Shown: positions 19,503 through 30,110 of the stretch, piece after piece | Layout of the letters: every line of letters begins with the position of its first letter | How positions within the stretch are numbered: the stretch's first letter is position 1 | Origin: a virus | IMG/VR virus record: IMGVR_UViG_3300025699_000004 | Direction: 5' to 3' (one strand) | Length of the DNA stretch: 64,000 nucleotides | Notes under the pieces: generated by a model | The model's input: the letters and a program-made list of their open reading frames with translations, nothing else | Databases searched by the model: none | What the model was told of the DNA's origin: nothing | Position numbers and translations under genes: made by a program

Positions 19503-20213
19503 CTAATGAGCCAAGTATGCTATAGGTTTTTTAAAGTCTTTGATAAAACAATTGTTGCAATTGTTTCCTGCGCAAGTGTGATCATCTTTGTTTGACGTTG
19601 CAGGACAAACGGAATGCCCGTCGGCAATAGCCTTTTTAGCGCAACTATAGACTGACGTTCCTGCATCTAATCCTGCTATACTTGGCGCTTTTTCATCTAT
19701 ATATAAAGCGCTTGGTTTAATTACAACGTTTGGCAAGCTTGCCAAATCTTTTAGCGCATCCATTTGGCTTTCTCTAATATACTCACGTGTTGGAAACCAA
19801 AATTTAATTTGAGGAAAATTTTCGCAAACTCTTTTCCATGCATTAATATACTTTACTGAGAATAAGTCTCCACTATCGTGAACACGAAAAAGACTTGTAT
19901 CGATATTCTTTAATTTTTTAGCAACTCCGTTTTTAAAGTACTTTTTTTCGATTTGCTTAGATATCTCGTTAACAAACGTGTCGCCATTGTCTTTTCTTAA
20001 TGAATCAATAACAAAATCAGCGCGCGCTTGCAAACTAGCTTTAACATTAGAAAAAGTATAAAAACCTTTACAAGCATAACAACTTGAACAAATTAATTTG
20101 TCGAGTTTTTCTTTTACTTTAAATAAAAGTTTCGCGGCAGGACAATACTTTAATGCAGGAATGTTAAAACCTACACAAGGCATTTTGGATGGGTTGGATA
20201 ATAAGTTAATCAT
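19503..20213 (-). CDS. GP88-like phage protein (Cys-rich)
   Basis: CPAA...CSSCYACKGFY, FRVHDSGDLF, FWFPTR, CPA...C..CNNC. Confidence 0.7.
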   Translation of the reverse strand: MINLLSNPSKMPCVGFNIPALKYCPAAKLLFKVKEKLDKLICSSCYACKGFYTFSNVKASLQARADFVIDSLRKDNGDTFVNEISKQIEKKYFKNGVAKKLKNIDTSLFRVHDSGDLFSVKYINAWKRVCENFPQIKFWFPTREYIRESQMDALKDLASLPNVVIKPSALYIDEKAPSIAGLDAGTSVYSCAKKAIADGHSVCPATSNKDDHTCAGNNCNNCFIKDFKKPIAYLAH

Positions 20214-20258
20214 ATAAATAGTATTCCATAGGTTTTTCTAGATTGCAAACTTTTTTTT

Positions 20259-20291
20259 AAAAAAAAATAGCCTAGGTTTTACCCTAGGCTA
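20259..20291 (-). terminator. Intrinsic terminator
   Basis: TAGCCTAGG-6-CCTAGGCTA then T-run. Confidence 0.75.
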
Positions 20292-20505
20292 AATTGATTT
20301 AATTAAACTATAACGCCCAACATCCACCAAGGTTTTGATTCACTTGGCTTCTTCCATTGAAACGTTCCATCTTTTAATCTATACAGAATAAATCCATTCT
20401 TCGTTGGCTGTTTAGATAGTTTTACTGCAATAATTTTCTTATTAATATTCATTTGATTATTTTCGTTTATTTATTTTCGCTTGTCAAATTTATTTTTTGA
20501 TTATT

Positions 20506-20535
20506 TAGGGTAAGGGGAGAAATCCCCTTACCCTA
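20506..20535. other. Perfect 13-bp inverted repeat with 4-nt loop and no U-tract
   Basis: TAGGGTAAGGGGA-GAAA-TCCCCTTACCCTA just after stop of 20541 ORF. Confidence 0.75.
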
Positions 20536-20540
20536 TCACA

Positions 20541-20759
20541 TTAACTATTACTATCCAAATAGTTTTGAATTGCCTTGGCATCTCTTACGAGAGCCTCCAT
20601 GCTTACCCAACTATACTTGCCATCTTCTTGATCCTTCTTTTCCTTCTCAATGATGATGTCGGCGTTCTTGACGATTTCGTCTAGGTAACGATTAAGTCCT
20701 TCTGCAAGGATAATGTTACCGAGTCCGAAGTGATTTCTTATATGTTCGATTTGATCCAT
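20541..20759 (-). CDS. Hypothetical protein
   Basis: TTGCAA-16-TAGTTT-6-ATG. Confidence 0.7.
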   Translation of the reverse strand: MDQIEHIRNHFGLGNIILAEGLNRYLDEIVKNADIIIEKEKKDQEDGKYSWVSMEALVRDAKAIQNYLDSNS

Positions 20760-20811
20760 ACCAATAAACTAACACGCCTTTGTTTGATTGCAAACTTTTT
20801 TTTAAAAAAAA

Positions 20812-21054
20812 TTAATCATACATTTGTCTAAGCATATCAACATCAACGCCGTCAATATGTCTTGGAACATGATTTGTATGGGCATCTTCAACTAATCCAT
20901 TAATTAAATCCCCTGCATTTTCTGCATCCATTGGCTCTAGTATATTTTTTGATTCAACTAGCATAATATCAAAACCTTCTTTAGTTATGATTATTTGCTC
21001 ATCATCACGAAGTTTGCCTTGAATATATTTGAGCGCGACGTGTAAATCTTTCAT
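20812..21054 (-). CDS. Hypothetical protein (start moved to MKDLH)
   Basis: ATGA overlap with an upstream 36-aa hydrophobic ORF. Confidence 0.6.
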   Translation of the reverse strand: MKDLHVALKYIQGKLRDDEQIIITKEGFDIMLVESKNILEPMDAENAGDLINGLVEDAHTNHVPRHIDGVDVDMLRQMYD

Positions 21055-21350
21055 TGATCTATTTGTTTTTGAAAATGCCATGCTACAATATACATAATAA
21101 TCCAAGGTAATACAATTAAAACGTCATCTATCTTATTTATAAAACTAATTATTTCGTTCATATTTATTTATTTAATTTATTTTAATATCCTAACCAATTT
21201 AATACATACTGAGCATTATATTCTTCTTTAACTCCATAGATTGAATAAAAATTATCTATATCATTAAAAGCATTATGCTCTTTAATTTCTTGTATTGCTC
21301 TTTGTTTAGATATAACTAAACCCTCTGCGCTATCGTAATAATCCATTTAA

Positions 21351-21662
21351 TTAATATGCTTGAATGATTATGCCTCCATTGGCTAATTCCAATACCATAG
21401 TTTGATCTCTTAAATAGTCAAGAGCATAGTCATCATCATCTTCATCTTCTTCTGCTTCATAACCATAGTCCTGCTTCCATTCTTCAAGACTAGCATACTC
21501 TGTATACTCGCAACAAACTGCAATAGGATCAAGCTCCATTTCGGGAGAAAGCTCCTCGAACATTTCAAATAAAGCCTTTCGACCTGCTACTGTGAAGTTA
21601 GTTGCTCTGTTTACGTCGTCAAAAGACTTAACGAAATCCCATTCTGTAATTGTTTGAATCAT
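21351..21662 (-). CDS. Acidic hypothetical protein
   Basis: ORF track. Confidence 0.75.
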   Translation of the reverse strand: MIQTITEWDFVKSFDDVNRATNFTVAGRKALFEMFEELSPEMELDPIAVCCEYTEYASLEEWKQDYGYEAEEDEDDDDYALDYLRDQTMVLELANGGIIIQAY

Positions 21663-21668
21663 AATAAT

Positions 21669-21884
21669 TTAATTAATTTTGAGTTGTTGGTAGTTGTATA
21701 ATATATATTCGCTCACATCTTCGATTTTGTCAAGAGCATCTTTGAGAATTCTTTCTGTATCGCTCTTGCGCATCATATTCTTTTGATTAAAATACTCTAA
21801 AGCTTTTAAATGCCCTTTGGCTTTAGATAAATCTAATAGTTTTTGATGCAATGGTTCTCTTTCTAATTCTTTAGTAACTTTCAT
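21669..21884 (-). CDS. Hypothetical protein (second ATG)
   Basis: TTGACG-17-TAAAGT-6-ATG at 21884. Confidence 0.7.
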   Translation of the reverse strand: MKVTKELEREPLHQKLLDLSKAKGHLKALEYFNQKNMMRKSDTERILKDALDKIEDVSEYILYNYQQLKIN

Positions 21885-21915
21885 AATCATACTTTAAAAC
21901 AGATTAGTTTAAACG

Positions 21916-22197
21916 TCAAACTTTTTCTTTCCTTAATTGTTTTGTTTCGGGCGGGTATACATGGCAGGGTTCATCTGCTCCATTCTGTTTAATATACCAA
22001 GCAGGTGGATCAAGGGGTTGGACAAGTAAACCAATATATCCATGCTCTACAAAGTATTTTAATACTTTTGACCTGCCGATATTATTCATTGGAACATCTA
22101 TTTCAGTTCCCACAGGTGGAATTGGTTTATCTGAAGACCATTGAAGTTCTTCAAACTCAGTATAAGACGATACGGGTTGTTTTACTAATTCGTGCAT
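21916..22197 (-). CDS. Hypothetical protein
   Basis: Leaderless promoter; TGA stop inside next -35. Confidence 0.75.
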   Translation of the reverse strand: MHELVKQPVSSYTEFEELQWSSDKPIPPVGTEIDVPMNNIGRSKVLKYFVEHGYIGLLVQPLDPPAWYIKQNGADEPCHVYPPETKQLRKEKV

Positions 22198-22210
22198 ATT
22201 TGGAAATTAT

Positions 22211-22242
22211 AATAGATTAATTTAAAAGTCAAATTTATTTTT
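22211..22242. repeat. 32-bp exact duplicate of promoter cassette (second copy 22509-22540)
   Basis: AATAGATTAATTTAAAAGTCAAATTTATTTTT twice. Confidence 0.9.
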
Positions 22243-22243
22243 A

Positions 22244-22495
22244 TTATTCTACGCCTAGAATTGTTTTTAATTGGCGATAATGTTCTGTTCTAATAAATAC
22301 TTCTCTAACATAGTCGTCAGATTCTGCTTCTACTTTTTCTATCCTGCTAGGAACAAATTGAGCGAAACACTCTTCTCTTTCTCTCATGCCCCATTTAATA
22401 ACTAACGGAGTATTAGGAAAGTATTTAATTAATTGTGGAAGTTGAACGGAGTCTACAAAACCCCAATTCTCGATAATATCTTTTATTAGTTGCAT
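22244..22495 (-). CDS. Hypothetical protein
   Basis: Leaderless promoter. Confidence 0.75.
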   Translation of the reverse strand: MQLIKDIIENWGFVDSVQLPQLIKYFPNTPLVIKWGMREREECFAQFVPSRIEKVEAESDDYVREVFIRTEHYRQLKTILGVE

Positions 22496-22786
22496 GATTT
22501 AAATTTAGAATAGATTAATTTAAAAGTCAAATTTATTTTTGTGTTTTTACCTCTTTCTCTCTCCCGAAGGTTGTAGGCGTGTGCTGACGCCTCGTTGTTC
22601 AATGCTTTCGCATCTACAGAAAGAGCAGTCCCATAGGAGACTCGAACTCCTTTCTTTATTCCCTCTACGATGATCAATCGTTTGCAGTCGTAACTAGTAT
22701 TCTGCTCGTGGAAATAATGCTTTACCGATTATAAGCTAATGGGACACATAAAATGTTAAAGAACTAAGAACAATTAATCACATTAT

Positions 22787-23023
22787 TTAATCTACGTCAA
22801 ATAATTTTTTATTTTTTTCTAAATATTCTTCTCTAGCTATTTTGCCAGTAGCTAAAGCTATTTCATAACCTAATCTATTTAATTCAATTTTGATCACTTT
22901 TATCTTTCCTTTGTGATCGGGGGAAGGATTTATTTTCTCCTTTTCTCTGATTAATTTAAATTCGTTATACCTGCTAATGAGATATTTCAATCTCTCCGTT
23001 GGTGTCATTGGTTTAATGTTCAT
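22787..23023 (-). CDS. Hypothetical basic protein
   Basis: ORF track. Confidence 0.6.
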   Translation of the reverse strand: MNIKPMTPTERLKYLISRYNEFKLIREKEKINPSPDHKGKIKVIKIELNRLGYEIALATGKIAREEYLEKNKKLFDVD

Positions 23024-23337
23024 ACCAATATAAAGGCAGGGACTTTTATTTTTTCCGCATTATTTTGAATTTTTCTTTATATTCTTTAATAACTAAATCG
23101 TTATTATTTAATCTTTTGTACATTGGCTTGTAGGTATCAAACGGAATGAATTCCTTTAATGTTCCCCAAGCTATTATTATTTCATTTAAGTTCATTAGCA
23201 ATTATTTACGCAATTATTATTTACCCCTGACCCACCCGATACTGACCTGTTATTTATATAATTATTATAACCAATTAAGAGTATCTATCTTATTTAAACT
23301 AAATTAATCAATTTGGGAACTTATTTATTACGGACAC

Positions 23338-23367
23338 AAAAAAACCTCCCCTATTTCTAGGGGAGGC
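23338..23367 (-). terminator. Intrinsic terminator downstream of second DUF932 gene
   Basis: CCTCCCCTA-GAAA-TAGGGGAGG then T-run. Confidence 0.85.
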
Positions 23368-23390
23368 ATCTTCTTTCTAATTAATTATTA

Positions 23391-24275
23391 TTAATTGAGT
23401 GCCATGCACTCGTCCCAAACTCTGTTCATCAAGGTTGCATCTGAACCAAGAGTGAGAGAAGTCAATCTATTCTCTGCGATACTTGAAGTTTCAGAAGAAC
23501 GATGAGCTTTGCCATGATTTTGATATTCAGTAATACCATTAACTAAATCCCAAGCAGTTTCGCCTCTGTTGCCCATACCCTTGCTAAAGCGACTGAAGAC
23601 CTCATCTCTGATGTTCTCCGCTCTTTTGGACTCTCCCTTGAACAAACGATTGATAACCTCCCTAGCATCAGTAGGAGTAACAGGAGTTTCTGCTAAAGAA
23701 TAAATAATCTGTTTAGTTTCTGCATAAGCAGATTTGATTTCTTCCATTTGAGTATCTACATACCCCTGCAACTTATCTTCCATCTGCGCAGAATGTTTTA
23801 CCTTAACTACCGATTGACTATCTCTAGCAACCATACCATTTGTGCAAACTAATCTCTCCAACATTTTGTTGATAGTATGCTGAAGTGAACCATCGAACGA
23901 AGTCCAAAAGTAAACCACTTCGTCCATAGTATCCCCTACTTTAGGGTCAATTTCTATTGCATTTTTCTTGCGAAGAGAAAGAAATAACCTGCGACCTCCC
24001 TTGGCAAAACCTGCGGTATCAAAGGTCATATCCAAACCTTCACGAAGTGAATCTACATAATTAAAAGCTTTTGCAGGTTGCATAAGCGGATAAGTTTTAT
24101 TCACGATAGCAACAGGATTATCATTACCATCGAAAACTCCACGATAAGTTGGGAATTCTGAAATCGGGCGAAGAGAGTAATCCTGCTCTGCTCCGATGGT
24201 TTTTAATACTTCTGATACTGAGTTACATTCTGATACGTTATTCATTTTGAATCCTTTTTTTGAGTTAATATTCAT
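23391..24275 (-). CDS. DUF932/DUF945-family protein (paralog 2)
   Basis: YPLMQP..AF, SFDGS...RLVCTNG, KVKHS, GETAWDLVNGITEY..H; TTGACA-17-TATAGT upstream. Confidence 0.8.
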   Translation of the reverse strand: MNINSKKGFKMNNVSECNSVSEVLKTIGAEQDYSLRPISEFPTYRGVFDGNDNPVAIVNKTYPLMQPAKAFNYVDSLREGLDMTFDTAGFAKGGRRLFLSLRKKNAIEIDPKVGDTMDEVVYFWTSFDGSLQHTINKMLERLVCTNGMVARDSQSVVKVKHSAQMEDKLQGYVDTQMEEIKSAYAETKQIIYSLAETPVTPTDAREVINRLFKGESKRAENIRDEVFSRFSKGMGNRGETAWDLVNGITEYQNHGKAHRSSETSSIAENRLTSLTLGSDATLMNRVWDECMALN

Positions 24276-24329
24276 AAGACTATAAACACTATACTAAATA
24301 GATTAATTAATGTCAAACTTTTTAATTAA

Positions 24330-24638
24330 TTAATTTATATCGGGATTTTGGTCAGATAGATAATCATTTAATACATCACCCCTTAACCGATCATTATCTT
24401 TTCTTAGTTCAAGCAAACTCCTAGACATTGCTCCCATAAATACCCCGCCTATTCCTAATAGTTTTGCATGAAGTGAATCGTCTTCAACTTGATCGATTAA
24501 ATCTAATACCTTGGTCATAGTGGTTCTTAAAAAGAAATCTACTTGCTCTACATCTTGTGAAAGCATTTTTTTTGCATTCTCATCTATAACAAGATTCCAC
24601 TCATCATCAAGATAATCTTCGGGTTTATTTAATTTCAT
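24330..24638 (-). CDS. Hypothetical protein
   Basis: ORF track. Confidence 0.7.
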   Translation of the reverse strand: MKLNKPEDYLDDEWNLVIDENAKKMLSQDVEQVDFFLRTTMTKVLDLIDQVEDDSLHAKLLGIGGVFMGAMSRSLLELRKDNDRLRGDVLNDYLSDQNPDIN

Positions 24639-24915
24639 TTATTTTATTTCCTAAATTTTCTAATATTTTTTGATATATTTCATCTATTCTTTCCGCGCCC
24701 TTCATTCCTTTTATTTTATCTAAACCCTTTTTTCTTTCAAGATAATCATCTAGTATTTGATTTATTTTGCCCGATTTAGTTACAGGTATATATTCTTCCT
24801 CTTCTATTTCTTCGGATTCTTCCTTCGGAGGCATTCCCCAGGCTGAAAAGTTTTCTTCGTGATAATTATCCATATTATTTAAGAGATGATTGTATTTGTT
24901 CTGATAATTCGTCAA
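24625..24915 (-). CDS. Hypothetical protein
   Basis: ORF track. Confidence 0.55.
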   Translation of the reverse strand: MTNYQNKYNHLLNNMDNYHEENFSAWGMPPKEESEEIEEEEYIPVTKSGKINQILDDYLERKKGLDKIKGMKGAERIDEIYQKILENLGNKINEIK

Positions 24916-25150
24916 TGTCTTCGCAATCCTCTGTATGAAAGGTATTTACGACATTATCCATATAATTTATTTCTTCCTGCATATCTTTAATTGAATAATC
25001 TATTACTTGATCTGCTTCATCATAACTAGATTCTTCTTCTACTGCATTTGAATTATTTAAATAAAATTCTACATAATCCATATCGGCAGGTGTTTTGCCG
25101 AAACGATTAACCCAATATGCCATTGCCTTGATTGATAAGATATTGTTCAT
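24875..25150 (-). CDS. Acidic hypothetical protein
   Basis: ORF track. Confidence 0.6.
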   Translation of the reverse strand: MNNILSIKAMAYWVNRFGKTPADMDYVEFYLNNSNAVEEESSYDEADQVIDYSIKDMQEEINYMDNVVNTFHTEDCEDIDELSEQIQSSLK

Positions 25151-25225
25151 AATTTTTCTCCTATTGTGATTGATAATAATAATACTAAAGCTAACATAAA
25201 TAATAATTCCATGATTGTCAAATTA

Positions 25226-25600
25226 TTAATTATAAAAAAGTTTTCCATTAATCGCTTTAACGAAATGAGCTTTATAAACTGAGCTACCATCCCCCTTATC
25301 ATAAAAACTATTTCTAGCATAAGGATTGTAAGATGCTTGTCTAATTAAATTAAGAGGGGTGTCCCATATATACCCCCTTACAAAGGCATGAACATTCTTT
25401 CTTTTCTCTTTAATTACTTTTAGTCTGTTCTTCTCATTAACTAGAAAAGAGCAATCATATAAATTAATTTCATCTGAATGTGCTTTAACTAATCCATTTT
25501 GTTTAACAGACCAACAACCTTTATGTAAGTTTCTATATACTTTAACAGGTTTAGAATAGTCTATGTAGTATCTTTTATCTGTTTGATTTAATAATTTCAT
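25226..25600 (-). CDS. Conserved-looking phage hypothetical protein
   Basis: VKVYRNLHKGCWSVK...KRKNVHAFVRG; leaderless promoter. Confidence 0.8.
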   Translation of the reverse strand: MKLLNQTDKRYYIDYSKPVKVYRNLHKGCWSVKQNGLVKAHSDEINLYDCSFLVNEKNRLKVIKEKRKNVHAFVRGYIWDTPLNLIRQASYNPYARNSFYDKGDGSSVYKAHFVKAINGKLFYN

Positions 25601-25642
25601 GTAATCAATATCACATAAGAATTACACCTTGTCAAATAAAAT

Positions 25643-25707
25643 AAAAAAACCTCCCCTCTCTGATTAACAACTAAGGTAATAAAGCTTAGTCTCAGAGAGA
25701 GAAGGAG
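25643..25707 (-). terminator. Long hairpin terminator closing the ncRNA unit
   Basis: CTCCTTCTCTCTCTGA...TCAGAGAGGGGAGG then T7. Confidence 0.7.
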
Positions 25708-25736
25708 AACGATGAGCTACGAACTCAAAATTAAAT

Positions 25737-26045
25737 TGGTGTGGGGGAGGACTACTGTATACCTCCGACTTTTCGGCATGAACATCAGTTCATAGAGTTC
25801 CTACTTTGTACTACAAATTAGACGTGGTATTAGTCTTTCGCTCATCCGATTGGACTCTGCGTCCCCACCACAGGGAATTTGCATACCTTAGCCCGCTCAT
25901 GACAGGCTTGCTCAGTCACCCACAGGAGAAGCATATCTACTTCTCCAAAGTGTCGGGGGGTAGAGTTTATTTGTTCACCTCGGCAAACAAAAGGATATAA
26001 CCAAAACCTTGCTCTACCGCAGGAATTTATCCTGCGTAACTCCCC
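25737..26045 (-). ncRNA. Candidate ~310-nt structured non-coding RNA of unknown class
   Basis: GC-rich, multiple perfect hairpins, complementary 5'/3' ends, own promoter and terminator, no credible ORF. Confidence 0.6.
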
Positions 26046-26113
26046 TTTATGAAAATGTTAAAGATCAAGTCTTATTTGATTTAATTGAGTTCGACTTTCT
26101 CAATGATTTATAT

Positions 26114-26142
26114 AGTATACTCTATTATTTGGAATAAGTCAA
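26114..26142 (-). promoter_or_regulatory. sigma70-type promoter of ncRNA unit
   Basis: TTGACT-17-TATACT. Confidence 0.8.
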
Positions 26143-26393
26143 GAAGTTTTTCTACTTATTTCTATTTTTTATTTTTATTTTATATTTTATTTGTGCTAAG
26201 TCTTTTCTTATCTGTTTAGTTATTTCGATTGTTTCTTCTTCCAATCCTCTAACTAATTTAATTAATGCTCCGTGTTTACTCATGTTATTACAATATAGAT
26301 CAGTATTTAGAATAAGTCAAAGAGTTTATTATTTATTATTATTATTTATAATTTTTTAAAACTTTTTAAAAATCGGCGTTATCTGATTAGAAT

Positions 26394-26567
26394 CTACAAG
26401 AATTTGTGCAATATATTTAATTGATTTAATCCTACATATTTAGCGAAGTAAGAACAGAATTCTGCGATCCTGTGCATTTCCCATCCTTCTTTCCTCATTA
26501 CATCTCCTACTTGAGTATAATCTCCTTTATTCCACATCTCTGTTAATTCGATATATTCTGTTTTCAT
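26394..26567 (-). CDS. Hypothetical protein (57 aa, below track cutoff)
   Basis: Manual translation MKTEYIELTEMWNKGDY... Confidence 0.55.
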   Translation of the reverse strand: MKTEYIELTEMWNKGDYTQVGDVMRKEGWEMHRIAEFCSYFAKYVGLNQLNILHKFL

Positions 26568-26637
26568 TATTTGTTTATTTATTTATTATTTAATTTATTA
26601 TTATTTATTATTTAATTTATTATTTATTCAATTTAAA

Positions 26638-26714
26638 TGGTGGGTTCTGTGAGGCTCGAACTCACGACCTGCCGATTATGAGTCGGATGCTCTAACCAAC
26701 TGAGCTAAGAACCC
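26638..26714 (-). tRNA. trnI: tRNA with CAU anticodon, probably Ile2 (lysidine) rather than Met
   Basis: Cloverleaf GGGTTCT...AGAACCC-ACCA; CCGACTCATAATCGG arm resembles bacterial Ile2 tRNAs. Confidence 0.85.
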
Positions 26715-27037
26715 ATTCTATATTCTTCTGTTTCTATATATTCTTCTATTGTTAAATTTAATTTATCTACTCTATTTTCAAACTCATCAAAAAAGAATAT
26801 TAATAAACTGCTTATTTTATTTTCTATTTTTTCTTTTTCCGCTTTATTTAATTTATTATTTAATTCTTTCTTACATTTTACTATCTGATCGACTAATCCT
26901 TCTATGAACTTTATTTCTTCTTCTATTTTCTGATTAATTAATTTATTATTATATTGTTTATTAAATAATTCTTTTGTTTTATTTAATTCTTTTATTAAAA
27001 ATATACTTTCTTGCTTGAGTTCGTCTTCGATCTCCAT
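26705..27037 (-). CDS. Low-complexity coiled-coil hypothetical protein
   Basis: Last 10 nt overlap tRNA 5' end. Confidence 0.45.
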   Translation of the reverse strand: MEIEDELKQESIFLIKELNKTKELFNKQYNNKLINQKIEEEIKFIEGLVDQIVKCKKELNNKLNKAEKEKIENKISSLLIFFFDEFENRVDKLNLTIEEYIETEEYRMGS

Positions 27038-27046
27038 TTTTTTTTC

Positions 27047-27075
27047 TTGACTTTATTAAAATAGTGCGATATAAT
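27047..27075 (+). promoter_or_regulatory. Near-consensus sigma70 promoter facing against the early region
   Basis: TTGACT-17-TATAAT on + strand. Confidence 0.6.
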
Positions 27076-27190
27076 TAATTATTTTATATATTTAAATTCG
27101 CCACACCACTCTCAAACAAATAATAATATAGTAATAAAGTTCTGAATAGTAACAATCTCTGTATAAAACATTATATATTCTCTCTCTATC

Positions 27191-27472
27191 TTATTGTTTA
27201 TTATCCTTATTGTTATTCTTAATAGGATGTTTATTGGAAGACTTGGGTTGATCGTCCCTAAGTTTGCTTTTAAGATGGGTGAAATCATAGAGAAGATGAT
27301 TCTTCTCTTTGTATCGTTTATCAGAGGGAACGATTCTCTCGAAAACCTTACCTCCAACGAGTTTCCCTGTTTGAATTGCCCATTGCTTGATGGTTTTTAA
27401 GGGAGTGTTAGGGAACTTATGCGAATAAGATGCTTGGTGAACTCCTCGTGAATCAAATACTGAATATCTCAT
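27191..27472 (-). CDS. Hypothetical protein
   Basis: TTGACA-17-TATATT promoter upstream. Confidence 0.6.
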   Translation of the reverse strand: MRYSVFDSRGVHQASYSHKFPNTPLKTIKQWAIQTGKLVGGKVFERIVPSDKRYKEKNHLLYDFTHLKSKLRDDQPKSSNKHPIKNNNKDNKQ

Positions 27473-27532
27473 AGTTTGTAATAATTGTTAATATACTTAT
27501 AATATACTTTATAATTTATGTTTTGTCAAGTT

Positions 27533-27886
27533 CTAATTTATACTTTCTTTACTCGCTCTTTCGAGTATACCTTTTAAGAATGAATCCCCTCCTTGACATA
27601 AAGCATTTGGATATAATGATCTTTGATGATCTGCCCAAGTTTGTCTTTTATCATCCCAATGTTTAATACTAGAAATTAAATCAACAACATCTTGCCATGA
27701 AAGATATGAGCCAACATCATAGTCGCTTAATGGTATGTTGCCAATATCGTCCCATAGAAGCACCTCAAAAGTGTTTGAAGACCTTGACCCTTGGCATCCA
27801 TTGCCTTGAACAATTGATATGCTTATATCGTTTACTTGATAACTTGCTTGCCAATGCAAATCGTCCATGTTGGTGATAATATTCAT
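27533..27886 (-). CDS. Hypothetical protein
   Basis: ORF track. Confidence 0.7.
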   Translation of the reverse strand: MNIITNMDDLHWQASYQVNDISISIVQGNGCQGSRSSNTFEVLLWDDIGNIPLSDYDVGSYLSWQDVVDLISSIKHWDDKRQTWADHQRSLYPNALCQGGDSFLKGILERASKESIN

Positions 27887-27887
27887 T

Positions 27888-28202
27888 TTACTTAAATTTT
27901 AATTTTTTAATTTGATAGTCGTGGAATAATGTTTTCCATTCACTTAATGATTTTGTTTGTCCTATTAGATTAGTTTTACCTTTTACTCCACATTCTACTA
28001 ATTCTGCGCGAAGTCTAAGAAATTCCATAAAATCAATTTCATTATTAATATGTTTATCTGCATTTGGATAATTAATATTAATTAAAGCTATTTCCTTCTT
28101 ACTTAAAAAAGACCTTCTCCACATTGGAGAATCCATTATAGATAGATAAGATTCTATTGTATTGCAAGAGTTAATTAAATCTGTTGTTTTTTGAGAAATC
28201 AT
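27888..28202 (-). CDS. Hypothetical protein
   Basis: ORF track. Confidence 0.65.
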   Translation of the reverse strand: MISQKTTDLINSCNTIESYLSIMDSPMWRRSFLSKKEIALININYPNADKHINNEIDFMEFLRLRAELVECGVKGKTNLIGQTKSLSEWKTLFHDYQIKKLKFK

Positions 28203-28636
28203 TTTACTTAATTAATTTAATTTTTTTAGCTTGTTGGATAATTGCCAACTTTTTAGCAAACTCTCTTTGTTGCGCGAAAATACCTTCAGTAGCTTCGTTG
28301 TAAGTTCTGAACCTTGCATTTCTAATATATGTGCCGTTCATAATATTGTTGGCGATAGTTGATCTAATAGCTTTACTCATTTCGCAATTTCCTTTTTTTA
28401 GATTAATAATTTTTCTTGATAATAACTAACAATAGCATAATTAAATTTATATGTCAATACTTATTCGTAAACTTTTTCATGTTTAATTATTGAGTCTATA
28501 TGATCTTTAAGCATATCGTGCATAAGTTCCTCATCATAAACTCTTTCACCATCATCTGTCAAGGAGAAAAGAACAGGGATTTGAATTTTGTCGTGACTTG
28601 GGTAGTCGTTATCTTGATGTATTTGAATTGTATGTC

Positions 28637-28831
28637 TCATTTGCTTTTGATTATTCTAATTATTCTTGAACAAACACCATCGTAATCACTTTCTAGTGAA
28701 TTAACAACACCTTCCCATGTATCACCTAATACATCTCTCAACCAATAAGCACTTGGTAATTCTACAACATCACCAATTTTAACATTTAAATCTGTTTCGT
28801 ATGTATAACCTTCAACTACAACTTTTTTCAT
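28637..28831 (-). CDS. Hypothetical protein
   Basis: GGAGG RBS and ATGA overlap. Confidence 0.7.
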   Translation of the reverse strand: MKKVVVEGYTYETDLNVKIGDVVELPSAYWLRDVLGDTWEGVVNSLESDYDGVCSRIIRIIKSK

Positions 28832-29013
28832 TTTGAACCTCCATTTATATTTTCATTCATTTCAAAATGGTCTACATTTGAATTAAATAATTCTTCATCT
28901 TTATCCATGATTGCACAAAGATCATCATAAACATAGGACATAAGATCGTCTAAGTCCATATCGTCAACAATTTTTTGTGCGACTACCATTACATTTTCAT
29001 CTGTATAATTCAT
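28828..29013 (-). CDS. Acidic hypothetical protein
   Basis: Coupled to neighbours. Confidence 0.7.
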   Translation of the reverse strand: MNYTDENVMVVAQKIVDDMDLDDLMSYVYDDLCAIMDKDEELFNSNVDHFEMNENINGGSK

Positions 29014-29294
29014 TATTTACTTCCCCCATTTATATTATCTAATTCGTTTTCTTTTTCTTGCCTTCTCATTGCATCGACAACTTCTTGATCTACTAAATTA
29101 TTAATTCTTTCTACATAATCAATCTTTGTATCGAAATAACAATCAATTAATTGTGCAATTTGCTCTACGCATTCATTAAATCTATAATTATATCCACCAT
29201 TTGATGGAACTTGAAAGGTAATTGATTCTGTTTCGTAATTCATGCTTTGCCCTATTGTTTGTTTGATAACTCCTTCAATTATTGAATAACTCAT
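29013..29294 (-). CDS. Hypothetical protein
   Basis: Coupled to neighbours. Confidence 0.65.
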   Translation of the reverse strand: MSYSIIEGVIKQTIGQSMNYETESITFQVPSNGGYNYRFNECVEQIAQLIDCYFDTKIDYVERINNLVDQEVVDAMRRQEKENELDNINGGSK

Positions 29295-29303
29295 ACAAAC
29301 ACA

Positions 29304-29630
29304 CTAGCATACAAGATTATGTGCGTCAACATTTTTTCTGATTTTTTCTTTAATTTCTTGAATAAAATTATAAGAATGCTTGTTTCCCCCTAAGTGCCAA
29401 CGAGTTACGAATTCGGGATCGTTTGTATCTGATTTATAATCATAAATAGTAGCGATTGATCCATTGTCGGATTCAAGAACCCATTCGCATAGAACTTTAT
29501 TGTCAGCGGATTTTCCATAAGTTGGTGATCCAAACGAATTAATTAAACTAAAATAACTTGTAGTTGTCCAATCTACATAATAAGTTCCATTTGCTTTCTC
29601 ATTTACTTCATCTGATCTTAATACTTTCAT
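29304..29630 (-). CDS. Conserved-looking phage hypothetical protein
   Basis: AAGGAG RBS; FGSP...KV..EW...TIYDYK...WHLGG. Confidence 0.75.
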   Translation of the reverse strand: MKVLRSDEVNEKANGTYYVDWTTTSYFSLINSFGSPTYGKSADNKVLCEWVLESDNGSIATIYDYKSDTNDPEFVTRWHLGGNKHSYNFIQEIKEKIRKNVDAHNLVC

Positions 29631-29701
29631 GTCGATTTTTTCTCCTTTTATAAACGTGTTTTAATAATATGTCGATACAATAAACTTTATTTTATCTTGT
29701 G

Positions 29702-29920
29702 TCAAGAGTTATTTTCATAACTATCTATTAAATCTTCTAAATCCCATTCGGTATATTCCCTAAGTAATTTAATATTCTGAAATGCTCCATCTATATAAGT
29801 TGCTCCACCCATACCATCATTACATATCTCTATGCCTTTAATGTTTGTTTTGCATTGATAACCAACACCTTTATTGGTCTTGAAGTATCTAACATTTGTT
29901 ACTTTCATTGTTGTATGCAA
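29702..29920 (-). CDS. Hypothetical protein
   Basis: TGA stop inside next -35. Confidence 0.7.
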   Translation of the reverse strand: MHTTMKVTNVRYFKTNKGVGYQCKTNIKGIEICNDGMGGATYIDGAFQNIKLLREYTEWDLEDLIDSYENNS

Positions 29921-30110
29921 TATTCGTTTAAATAAATACCTTCTTCTACTAATTCATCTTCTGTAAACTCCATTGGTTCTTCCCATTCCTCATCATGCAA
30001 GAAATAAGTGCCTGTGAAATTATCGTAGTAAAATTTTTCTTCGATAGTTCCATCTTCGTATATGTGATTTATATTCATGTTTTAAACTTTACTATATTTT
30101 TGTTTTCGCG

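Follow-up and report, generated by a model that had tools for sequence, protein, structure and literature searches.

manA RNAs were first described in 2010 as riboswitch candidates from marine metagenomes, T4-like cyanophages and two gamma-proteobacteria (PMC2864571), and Rfam lists the family (RF01745) under the type Cis-reg. A preprint of 1 July 2026 presents cryo-EM structures of several manA RNAs; they assemble into pentamers and into pentamer-based octamers, decamers and an icosahedral-like cage of 60 subunits and ~430 Å (10.64898/2026.07.01.735769). The assemblies are reported to be joined by the intermolecular kissing loops L5-L7' and L8-L9', and those of another variant by the contacts L6-P6', L5-L7' and L3-L8'. 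Assembly is described there in vitro only, with core constructs of less than 200 nt; the preprint still terms manA "putative cis-regulatory" and gives no cellular role (10.64898/2026.07.01.735769). An orphan riboswitch candidate since 2010 was thus reported in 2026 to form RNA-only cages in vitro, with no known biological role. Precedents for ornate RNAs that form homo-oligomers are ROOL, GOLLD and OLE (PMC12286853).

We analysed a stretch of 64,000 nt of viral DNA (IMG/VR record IMGVR_UViG_3300025699_000004, hereafter the window), which comes from an uncultured, A+T-rich marine phage whose genes include rIIA, rIIB and three for tRNAs. An earlier note, made from the letters alone, had proposed on the minus strand a standalone structured RNA of unrecognised class lying ~600 nt from a tRNA. 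Indeed, a tRNA-Met gene (26714..26638) lies ~600 nt upstream of the RNA. The first bases of this tRNA gene are overlapped by an ORF (27037..26705), and a 57-aa ORF starts at 26567 on the minus strand; between the tRNA gene and the 57-aa ORF the minus strand carries A+T-only degenerate repeats with units like AAUAAAUUAAAUAAUAAAUAA (26560..26640).

An Rfam scan of the window identified minus-strand 25946..25736 as a full-length manA RNA, scoring 81.6 bits against a gathering threshold of 55.2 (E 3.3e-19) and spanning model positions 1-192 of 192 without truncation. The assignment to an unrecognised class is therefore wrong, as two thirds of the RNA is an above-threshold, full-length Rfam manA; a strong Rfam match, which the earlier note itself had listed as counting against its proposal, is what the scan returned. 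The RNA is a manA variant, arranged as a gene in its own right, that has an rRNA-style leader and a 5' accessory domain; it does not form a new class. The broader description as a highly structured, apparently stand-alone phage non-coding RNA holds, given its fold, promoter, terminator and lack of a conserved ORF.

The predicted transcript as a whole has a folding energy of -151 kcal/mol (z -4.9). As the earlier note had noticed, it forms a GC-rich island without a credible ORF: its G+C content is 0.41-0.47 against ~0.25-0.30 in the surroundings, sense ORFs within it reach at most 30 aa, and the antisense ORFs differ in frame, start and length across 48 relatives, so that none is conserved. 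A coding gene on either strand is ruled out by the short sense and unconserved antisense ORFs. The features of the unit are collected in Table 1.

Table 1. Features of the manA RNA unit and its downstream neighbour in the window.
Feature	Positions	Strand	Remarks
Sigma-70-type promoter, TTGACT-17-TATACT	26114..26142	minus	10/12 consensus positions; equivalent in relatives
Small leader hairpin, UUGAG...CUCAA	26085..26103	minus	Sequence conserved across the clade; occupies the boxB position of an rRNA leader
boxA-like 11-mer, GATCTTTAACA	26056..26066	minus	10/11 positions of the boxA consensus (gamma-proteobacterial)
5' accessory domain W, three-way junction	25947..26049	minus	Fold and covariation in 7 relatives
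manA RNA core, RF01745, full length	25736..25946	minus	Rfam match and clade consensus fold
manA P1 hairpin	25925..25946	minus	Rfam; stem sequence differs yet stays paired among relatives
Pseudoknot 5' strand, GUGGG	25919..25923	minus	Pairs with CCCAC 25745..25741; invariant within the clade
Hairpin with loop GUGGUG, mapped to L5	25863..25875	minus	GUGGC with partner GCCA/GCCG in five relatives
Hairpin with loop ...ACCAC, mapped to L7 (L5 partner)	25820..25836	minus	Rfam and covariation
Hairpin with loop ACUGAU, mapped to L8	25778..25793	minus	Rfam and covariation
Hairpin with loop UAUACAGUAGU, mapped to L9 (L8 partner)	25746..25766	minus	Covariation
Intrinsic terminator, long G+C-rich hairpin then seven U	25643..25707	minus	21-pair stem
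Next gene's promoter, TTGACA-17-GATATT, upstream TG	25607..25635	minus	Begins 8 nt after the terminator
Downstream gene, 124 aa, PHROG 586	25226..25600	minus	Outside the RNA unit

A blastn search of the RNA unit against 50,697 phage records gave no match, and tblastn of two large window proteins found no close phage relative. Relatives were collected via the downstream protein, a clade-specific manA word and one metagenome scan, followed by a profile search. This yielded a clade sample of 48 non-redundant full-length manA loci on marine phage contigs plus four from metagenomes, which we set against a contrast sample of 100 cyanophage-type manA loci. Among the 120 matches listed in the metagenome scan there were six manA loci, one of them truncated by the contig end; a genome scan for the clade anchor gave no manA among the 120 matches listed and is uninformative on cellular hosts.

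The manA helices are found again in the clade consensus fold, where 16 pairs covary. Several stems predicted earlier reappear in it: GGAGAAG/CUUCUCC is manA P1, and AGCCUG/CGGGCU and AUGAAC/GUUCAU are manA hairpins. The pseudoknot GUGGG/CCCAC of the clade corresponds to GGGAG/CUCCC in cyanophage-type manA, and these two compensatory pairs between the clades strengthen a pseudoknot that was marked with a question mark in the 2010 paper (PMC2864571). The multi-stem junction with its conserved GUGGUG and ACCA loops is present, with a U-A to C-G exchange in five relatives. The 7-pair basal stem of the penultimate hairpin is missing in the whole clade (there are five non-standard pairs in the window); because the manA score lies far above threshold, we regard this as clade variation and not as grounds for exclusion.

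Other pairings of the earlier note found no such backing in the comparison. The UACAAA partner proposed for UUUGUA gives way in the family model to an upstream GCAAAU, and by our reading of the alignment the relatives covary there. The CCGA/UCGG stem is not kept in relatives, and the GUCAU/GUGAC pseudoknot is uncertain, showing no covariation and a G-G clash in several of them. The proposed end-to-end helix between 5' GGGGAG and 3' CUCCCC is wrong, since both strands pair elsewhere: GGGG closes a local three-way junction with CCCC (25958..25955), and CCCAC pairs with GUGGG (25923..25919). The 3' CACACCA, for which a CCA end had been suggested, is not conserved among relatives and is therefore not a tRNA-like CCA end. 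After P1 stands an invariant word, CUGUGGGUGAC (25915..25927, minus strand); it resembles boxC of the E. coli rRNA leader, located 3' of boxA, and the likeness may be coincidental.

Directly 5' of P1, domain W is a real, uncatalogued, separately folding accessory domain fused to manA. Its GGGG/CCCC closing helix (26045..26042 with 25958..25955) is invariant in 7 relatives and encloses a hairpin (26036..26018), a helix formed by 26018..26012 with 25965..25959, and an inner hairpin with a YGAG loop (25991..25970). The domain folds at -33.5 kcal/mol (z -3.5). Across 7 distinct relatives, 95% of the cells are paired and 14 of the 25 pairs show compensatory changes, a level of support that none of 500 shuffles and no slid register comes close to. 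The stems CGCAGGA/UCCUGCG and GGUAGAG/CUCUACC of the earlier note were both right and both covary; in the latter, compensatory changes affect five of the seven pairs and none is broken, and in the inner hairpin they affect five of eight. Run on ~0.76 Mb of related DNA, a covariance model of the domain matched nowhere but immediately 5' of manA. An Rfam search of domain W with permissive thresholds returned noise, with a best score of 15 bits where the threshold is 59, and a viral scan with a loose pattern for the domain gave 119 matches, none adjoining manA.

Comparison of the loci L121-L273 and L455-L501 showed that the domain occupies a hot spot between the boxA-like 11-mer and P1, which holds at least 14 mutually unrelated insert types across the clade. 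P1 begins 12-14 nt after the 11-mer in ~20 members without insert and 62-219 nt after it in the rest. Most inserts have a closing helix of their own, and L474 carries two stacked modules. At the other end, an extra and apparently structured stretch of ~70-150 nt lies between manA and the terminator in L121, L232, L236, L241, L255/L211 and L270/L250; in L203, L204 and L261 the terminator stands within 5 nt of manA.

Upstream of the inserts, the clade shares a promoter-proximal layout. The predicted promoter agrees with that given by the earlier note. The leader hairpin folds weakly on its own (-3.4 kcal/mol, z -0.1). The gamma-proteobacterial boxA consensus is GYTCTTTAANA (PMC5725501), from which the window's 11-mer departs at position 2 alone, with A in place of C or T. 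The 11-mer or a close variant of it stands upstream of manA in 44 of the 47 clade members against two of the 96 cyanophage-type loci, with a background rate of 0.017 per 300 nt. Exact GNTCTTTAACA sites number two in the window, where 0.25 are expected, and both precede untranslated G+C islands; nearby protein-coding early genes have similar promoters without the boxA-like leader. Cyanophage-type manA begins right behind the -10 box: in L001-L120, P1 starts 6-8 nt after a TATAAT box, which places these RNAs at the very 5' end of the transcript, without a leader. One cyanophage-type locus, L090, carries two manA copies 3.5 kb apart.

The second untranslated G+C island lies at 22540..22800 on the minus strand, with an RNA at ~22745..22627. 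Upstream of it are a TTGACG promoter-like site and an 11-mer (22764..22754) that fits GYTCTTTAANA exactly. The RNA is tRNA-shaped, with acceptor, D arm and T arm, and an insert of ~70 nt replaces the anticodon arm; neither ARAGORN nor Rfam calls it. The next gene, which starts at 22494, is of the family found downstream of manA in most relatives.

At its 3' end the unit is closed by the hairpin terminator that the earlier note had recognized, whose flank folds at -31.7 kcal/mol (z -4.6). The unit thus has a sigma-70 promoter of its own at one end and a strong intrinsic terminator at the other, and the next gene has its own promoter. The direct 5'-UTR position that goes with the Cis-reg label, a functional label outside the covariance model, is not found here, as manA is cut off from the next ORF by the terminator and a further promoter. 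In the clade the elements usually follow one another as sigma-70 promoter, small hairpin, boxA-like 11-mer, optional insert, manA, spacer, terminator and new promoter. A terminator is present no more than 200 nt from manA in 39 of the 48 members, and most relatives that have one carry a new promoter 5-28 nt after its U run. Terminator stems are unrelated in sequence, and spacer lengths and extra 3' domains vary, with manA itself nearly invariant; this free variation means that no conserved antiterminator is visible. At least four gene families lie downstream of the clade's manA loci, and the family that usually follows manA stands in the window behind the other RNA unit (start 22494).

The spacer between manA and the terminator is often pyrimidine-rich in the clade, and many post-manA spacers are C-rich and G-poor. 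A conserved word, UUUCUUAAUCAU or close variants of it, stands immediately 3' of manA in L126, L127, L128, L129, L132, L133, L212, L215, L223, L253, L263, L271 and L272. A Shine-Dalgarno-plus-ATG arrangement on the opposite strand of the spacer was considered and rejected, because the ORFs are unconserved.

Two pairs of loops within the core are complementary and covary. The GUGGU/ACCAC pairing, already proposed in the earlier note, has changed from GUGGU/ACCAN to GUGGC with GCCA or GCCG in five clade sequences. In two clade sequences the last two loops, ACUG/CAGU, read ACUA/UAGU and in a third ACUU/AAGU, and the varying pair is never mismatched within the clade; a position-specific count of the equivalent varying pair in the cyanophage-type sample gave 72 C-G, 18 A-U and no mismatches. 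A generic longest-complement score for these two loops failed to tell own pairs apart from cross pairs, whereas the position-specific count succeeded. By counting helices in the Rfam structure we assigned the four loops to L5, L7, L8 and L9, and by this mapping from helix order the two pairings probably correspond to the kissing loops of the preprint. The covariation fits pairing within one molecule and between molecules alike.

On balance we favour, with somewhat better than even confidence, a free-standing, Rho-protected RNA gene whose product self-associates. We favour a free RNA gene because the unit has its own promoter and strong terminator, with a separate promoter for the next gene, and because terminators, spacers and 3' domains vary, the downstream gene families differ and the usual follower stands at 22494. 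Host RNA polymerase would start near 26107, the predicted transcription start, and the leader hairpin and boxA-like 11-mer would bring in the host Nus complex in the manner of rRNA operons. Such recruitment could protect the long untranslated transcript from Rho, until transcription would stop at 25650..25643. The released RNA of ~315-465 nt would fold into the manA core, and copies may then join via GUGGU/ACCAC and ACUG/CAGU to form closed homo-oligomers of the kind that other manA RNAs are reported to build in vitro; the 5' domain would be a lineage-specific peripheral add-on. Among the functions guessed at in the earlier note, a scaffold fits the 2026 report of manA self-assembly, whereas nothing supports a ribozyme, a decoy or an aminoacylated RNA.

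Against a free RNA gene stands the position of other manA RNAs. About two thirds of the cyanophage-type loci have an ORF of at least 40 codons opening ~10-50 nt downstream, in one third a terminator-like hairpin separates manA from the ORF, and in the clade members L202, L207 and L229 an ORF starts just after manA, which is then in 5'-UTR position. Together with the proposal of manA as a riboswitch candidate (PMC2864571) and the cis-regulatory Rfam type, these arrangements speak for a riboswitch, in which the manA core would be a ligand-sensing aptamer and the hairpin 25707..25643 its expression platform, a reading we consider unlikely for the window. On this reading the terminator would form when the core is folded and ligand-bound; in the unfolded core, the C-rich 3' strand would instead pair with the terminator's G-rich 3' arm, permitting read-through into the PHROG-586 gene. 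In the window the 3' strand CCUCCCC can indeed form seven pairs with GGGGAGG of that arm, but a pairing between a C-rich strand and a G-rich arm is expected from composition alone. Moreover, the terminators vary freely beside an invariant aptamer and are absent in some members, the spacer varies in length between ~5 and more than 120 nt and may include additional folded domains, and in the window, as in most terminator-bearing relatives, the promoter of the downstream gene immediately follows the terminator. The differing downstream gene families also argue against a switch, and no ligand has been reported since 2010 in the literature searched.

We rank below the riboswitch, as improbable, a free-standing RNA that acts as a monomer, either titrating a host or phage protein as its decoy or sponge or serving as a trans-acting regulator, with the loop pairs as intramolecular tertiary contacts. 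It shares the stand-alone architecture with the self-associating RNA gene, contacts within one molecule explain the covariation equally well, and the variable 5' and 3' add-on modules could be adaptor sites. Weighing against it, no candidate partner protein is linked to the unit, and in the preprint these loops are reported as intermolecular contacts in every manA structure described (10.64898/2026.07.01.735769).

A more far-reaching possibility, to which we give still less credence, is a modular RNA gene in which, in this clade, a self-assembling manA core carries interchangeable folded modules at a fixed hot spot 5' of P1, and sometimes 3' of the core, displayed on or held inside an RNA-only cage made during infection. 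If this were true, manA would be a phage-encoded RNA scaffold or compartment and no riboswitch. Leaving the cage aside, the layout with promoter, rRNA-style leader, terminator and swappable domains suggests, on sequence grounds, that manA is made as a free RNA, at least in this clade.

A new RNA class or ribozyme, as first interpreted, is very improbable: the 5' domain (26049..25947) on its own has no Rfam match, but the manA match covers the full model and already refutes this reading for the core, the covariance model never found the 5' domain apart from manA in the DNA examined, and group I, RNase P, tmRNA, ROOL and GOLLD gave no Rfam match at E up to 1 (20000..30000), with no tmRNA called by ARAGORN in the window. 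The absence of tmRNA and RNase P signatures remarked on in the earlier note is thereby confirmed. A group I-like core, also considered, is ruled out by the manA match together with the lack of a group I match in the same range and at the same E value.

Compared with the systems described so far, the window RNA shares with manA RF01745 the P1 hairpin, the pseudoknot, the multi-stem junction, the GUGGUG and ACCA loops and the complementary last two loops, and its marine phage origin fits. It differs in having its own promoter, boxA-like leader and terminator and in not standing directly before an ORF, and it bears an accessory domain of ~100 nt 5' of P1. Within the core, the consensus 7-pair basal stem of the penultimate hairpin is unformed, the third junction hairpin lacks the consensus GNRA-type loop, and the pseudoknot reads GUGGG/CCCAC instead of GGGAG/CUCCC. 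The manA RNAs of the preprint belong to the same family, and the loop pairs mapped to L5-L7' and L8-L9' are present and covary in the window's clade; those RNAs are core constructs of less than 200 nt from other sources, whereas the window RNA has extra 5' and 3' parts. The likeness to the rRNA-operon leader, with its boxB and boxA and Nus antitermination (PMC5725501, PMC6614797), consists of a hairpin followed by an 11-mer matching at 10/11 positions, placed near the 5' end of an untranslated structured RNA; here, in contrast, the motif lies in a phage RNA gene and has A at position 2, and a Nus effect is putative by analogy. With ROOL, GOLLD and OLE the resemblance is one of concept, that of a non-coding and probably stand-alone RNA which, judging from its loops, is likely to self-associate through loop contacts. 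ROOL and GOLLD had also been invoked in the earlier note as phage RNAs encoded near tRNAs, and the window RNA likewise lies ~600 nt from a phage tRNA gene. It is much smaller than ROOL, GOLLD and OLE and belongs to another family, with no sequence or structure match to them in Rfam.
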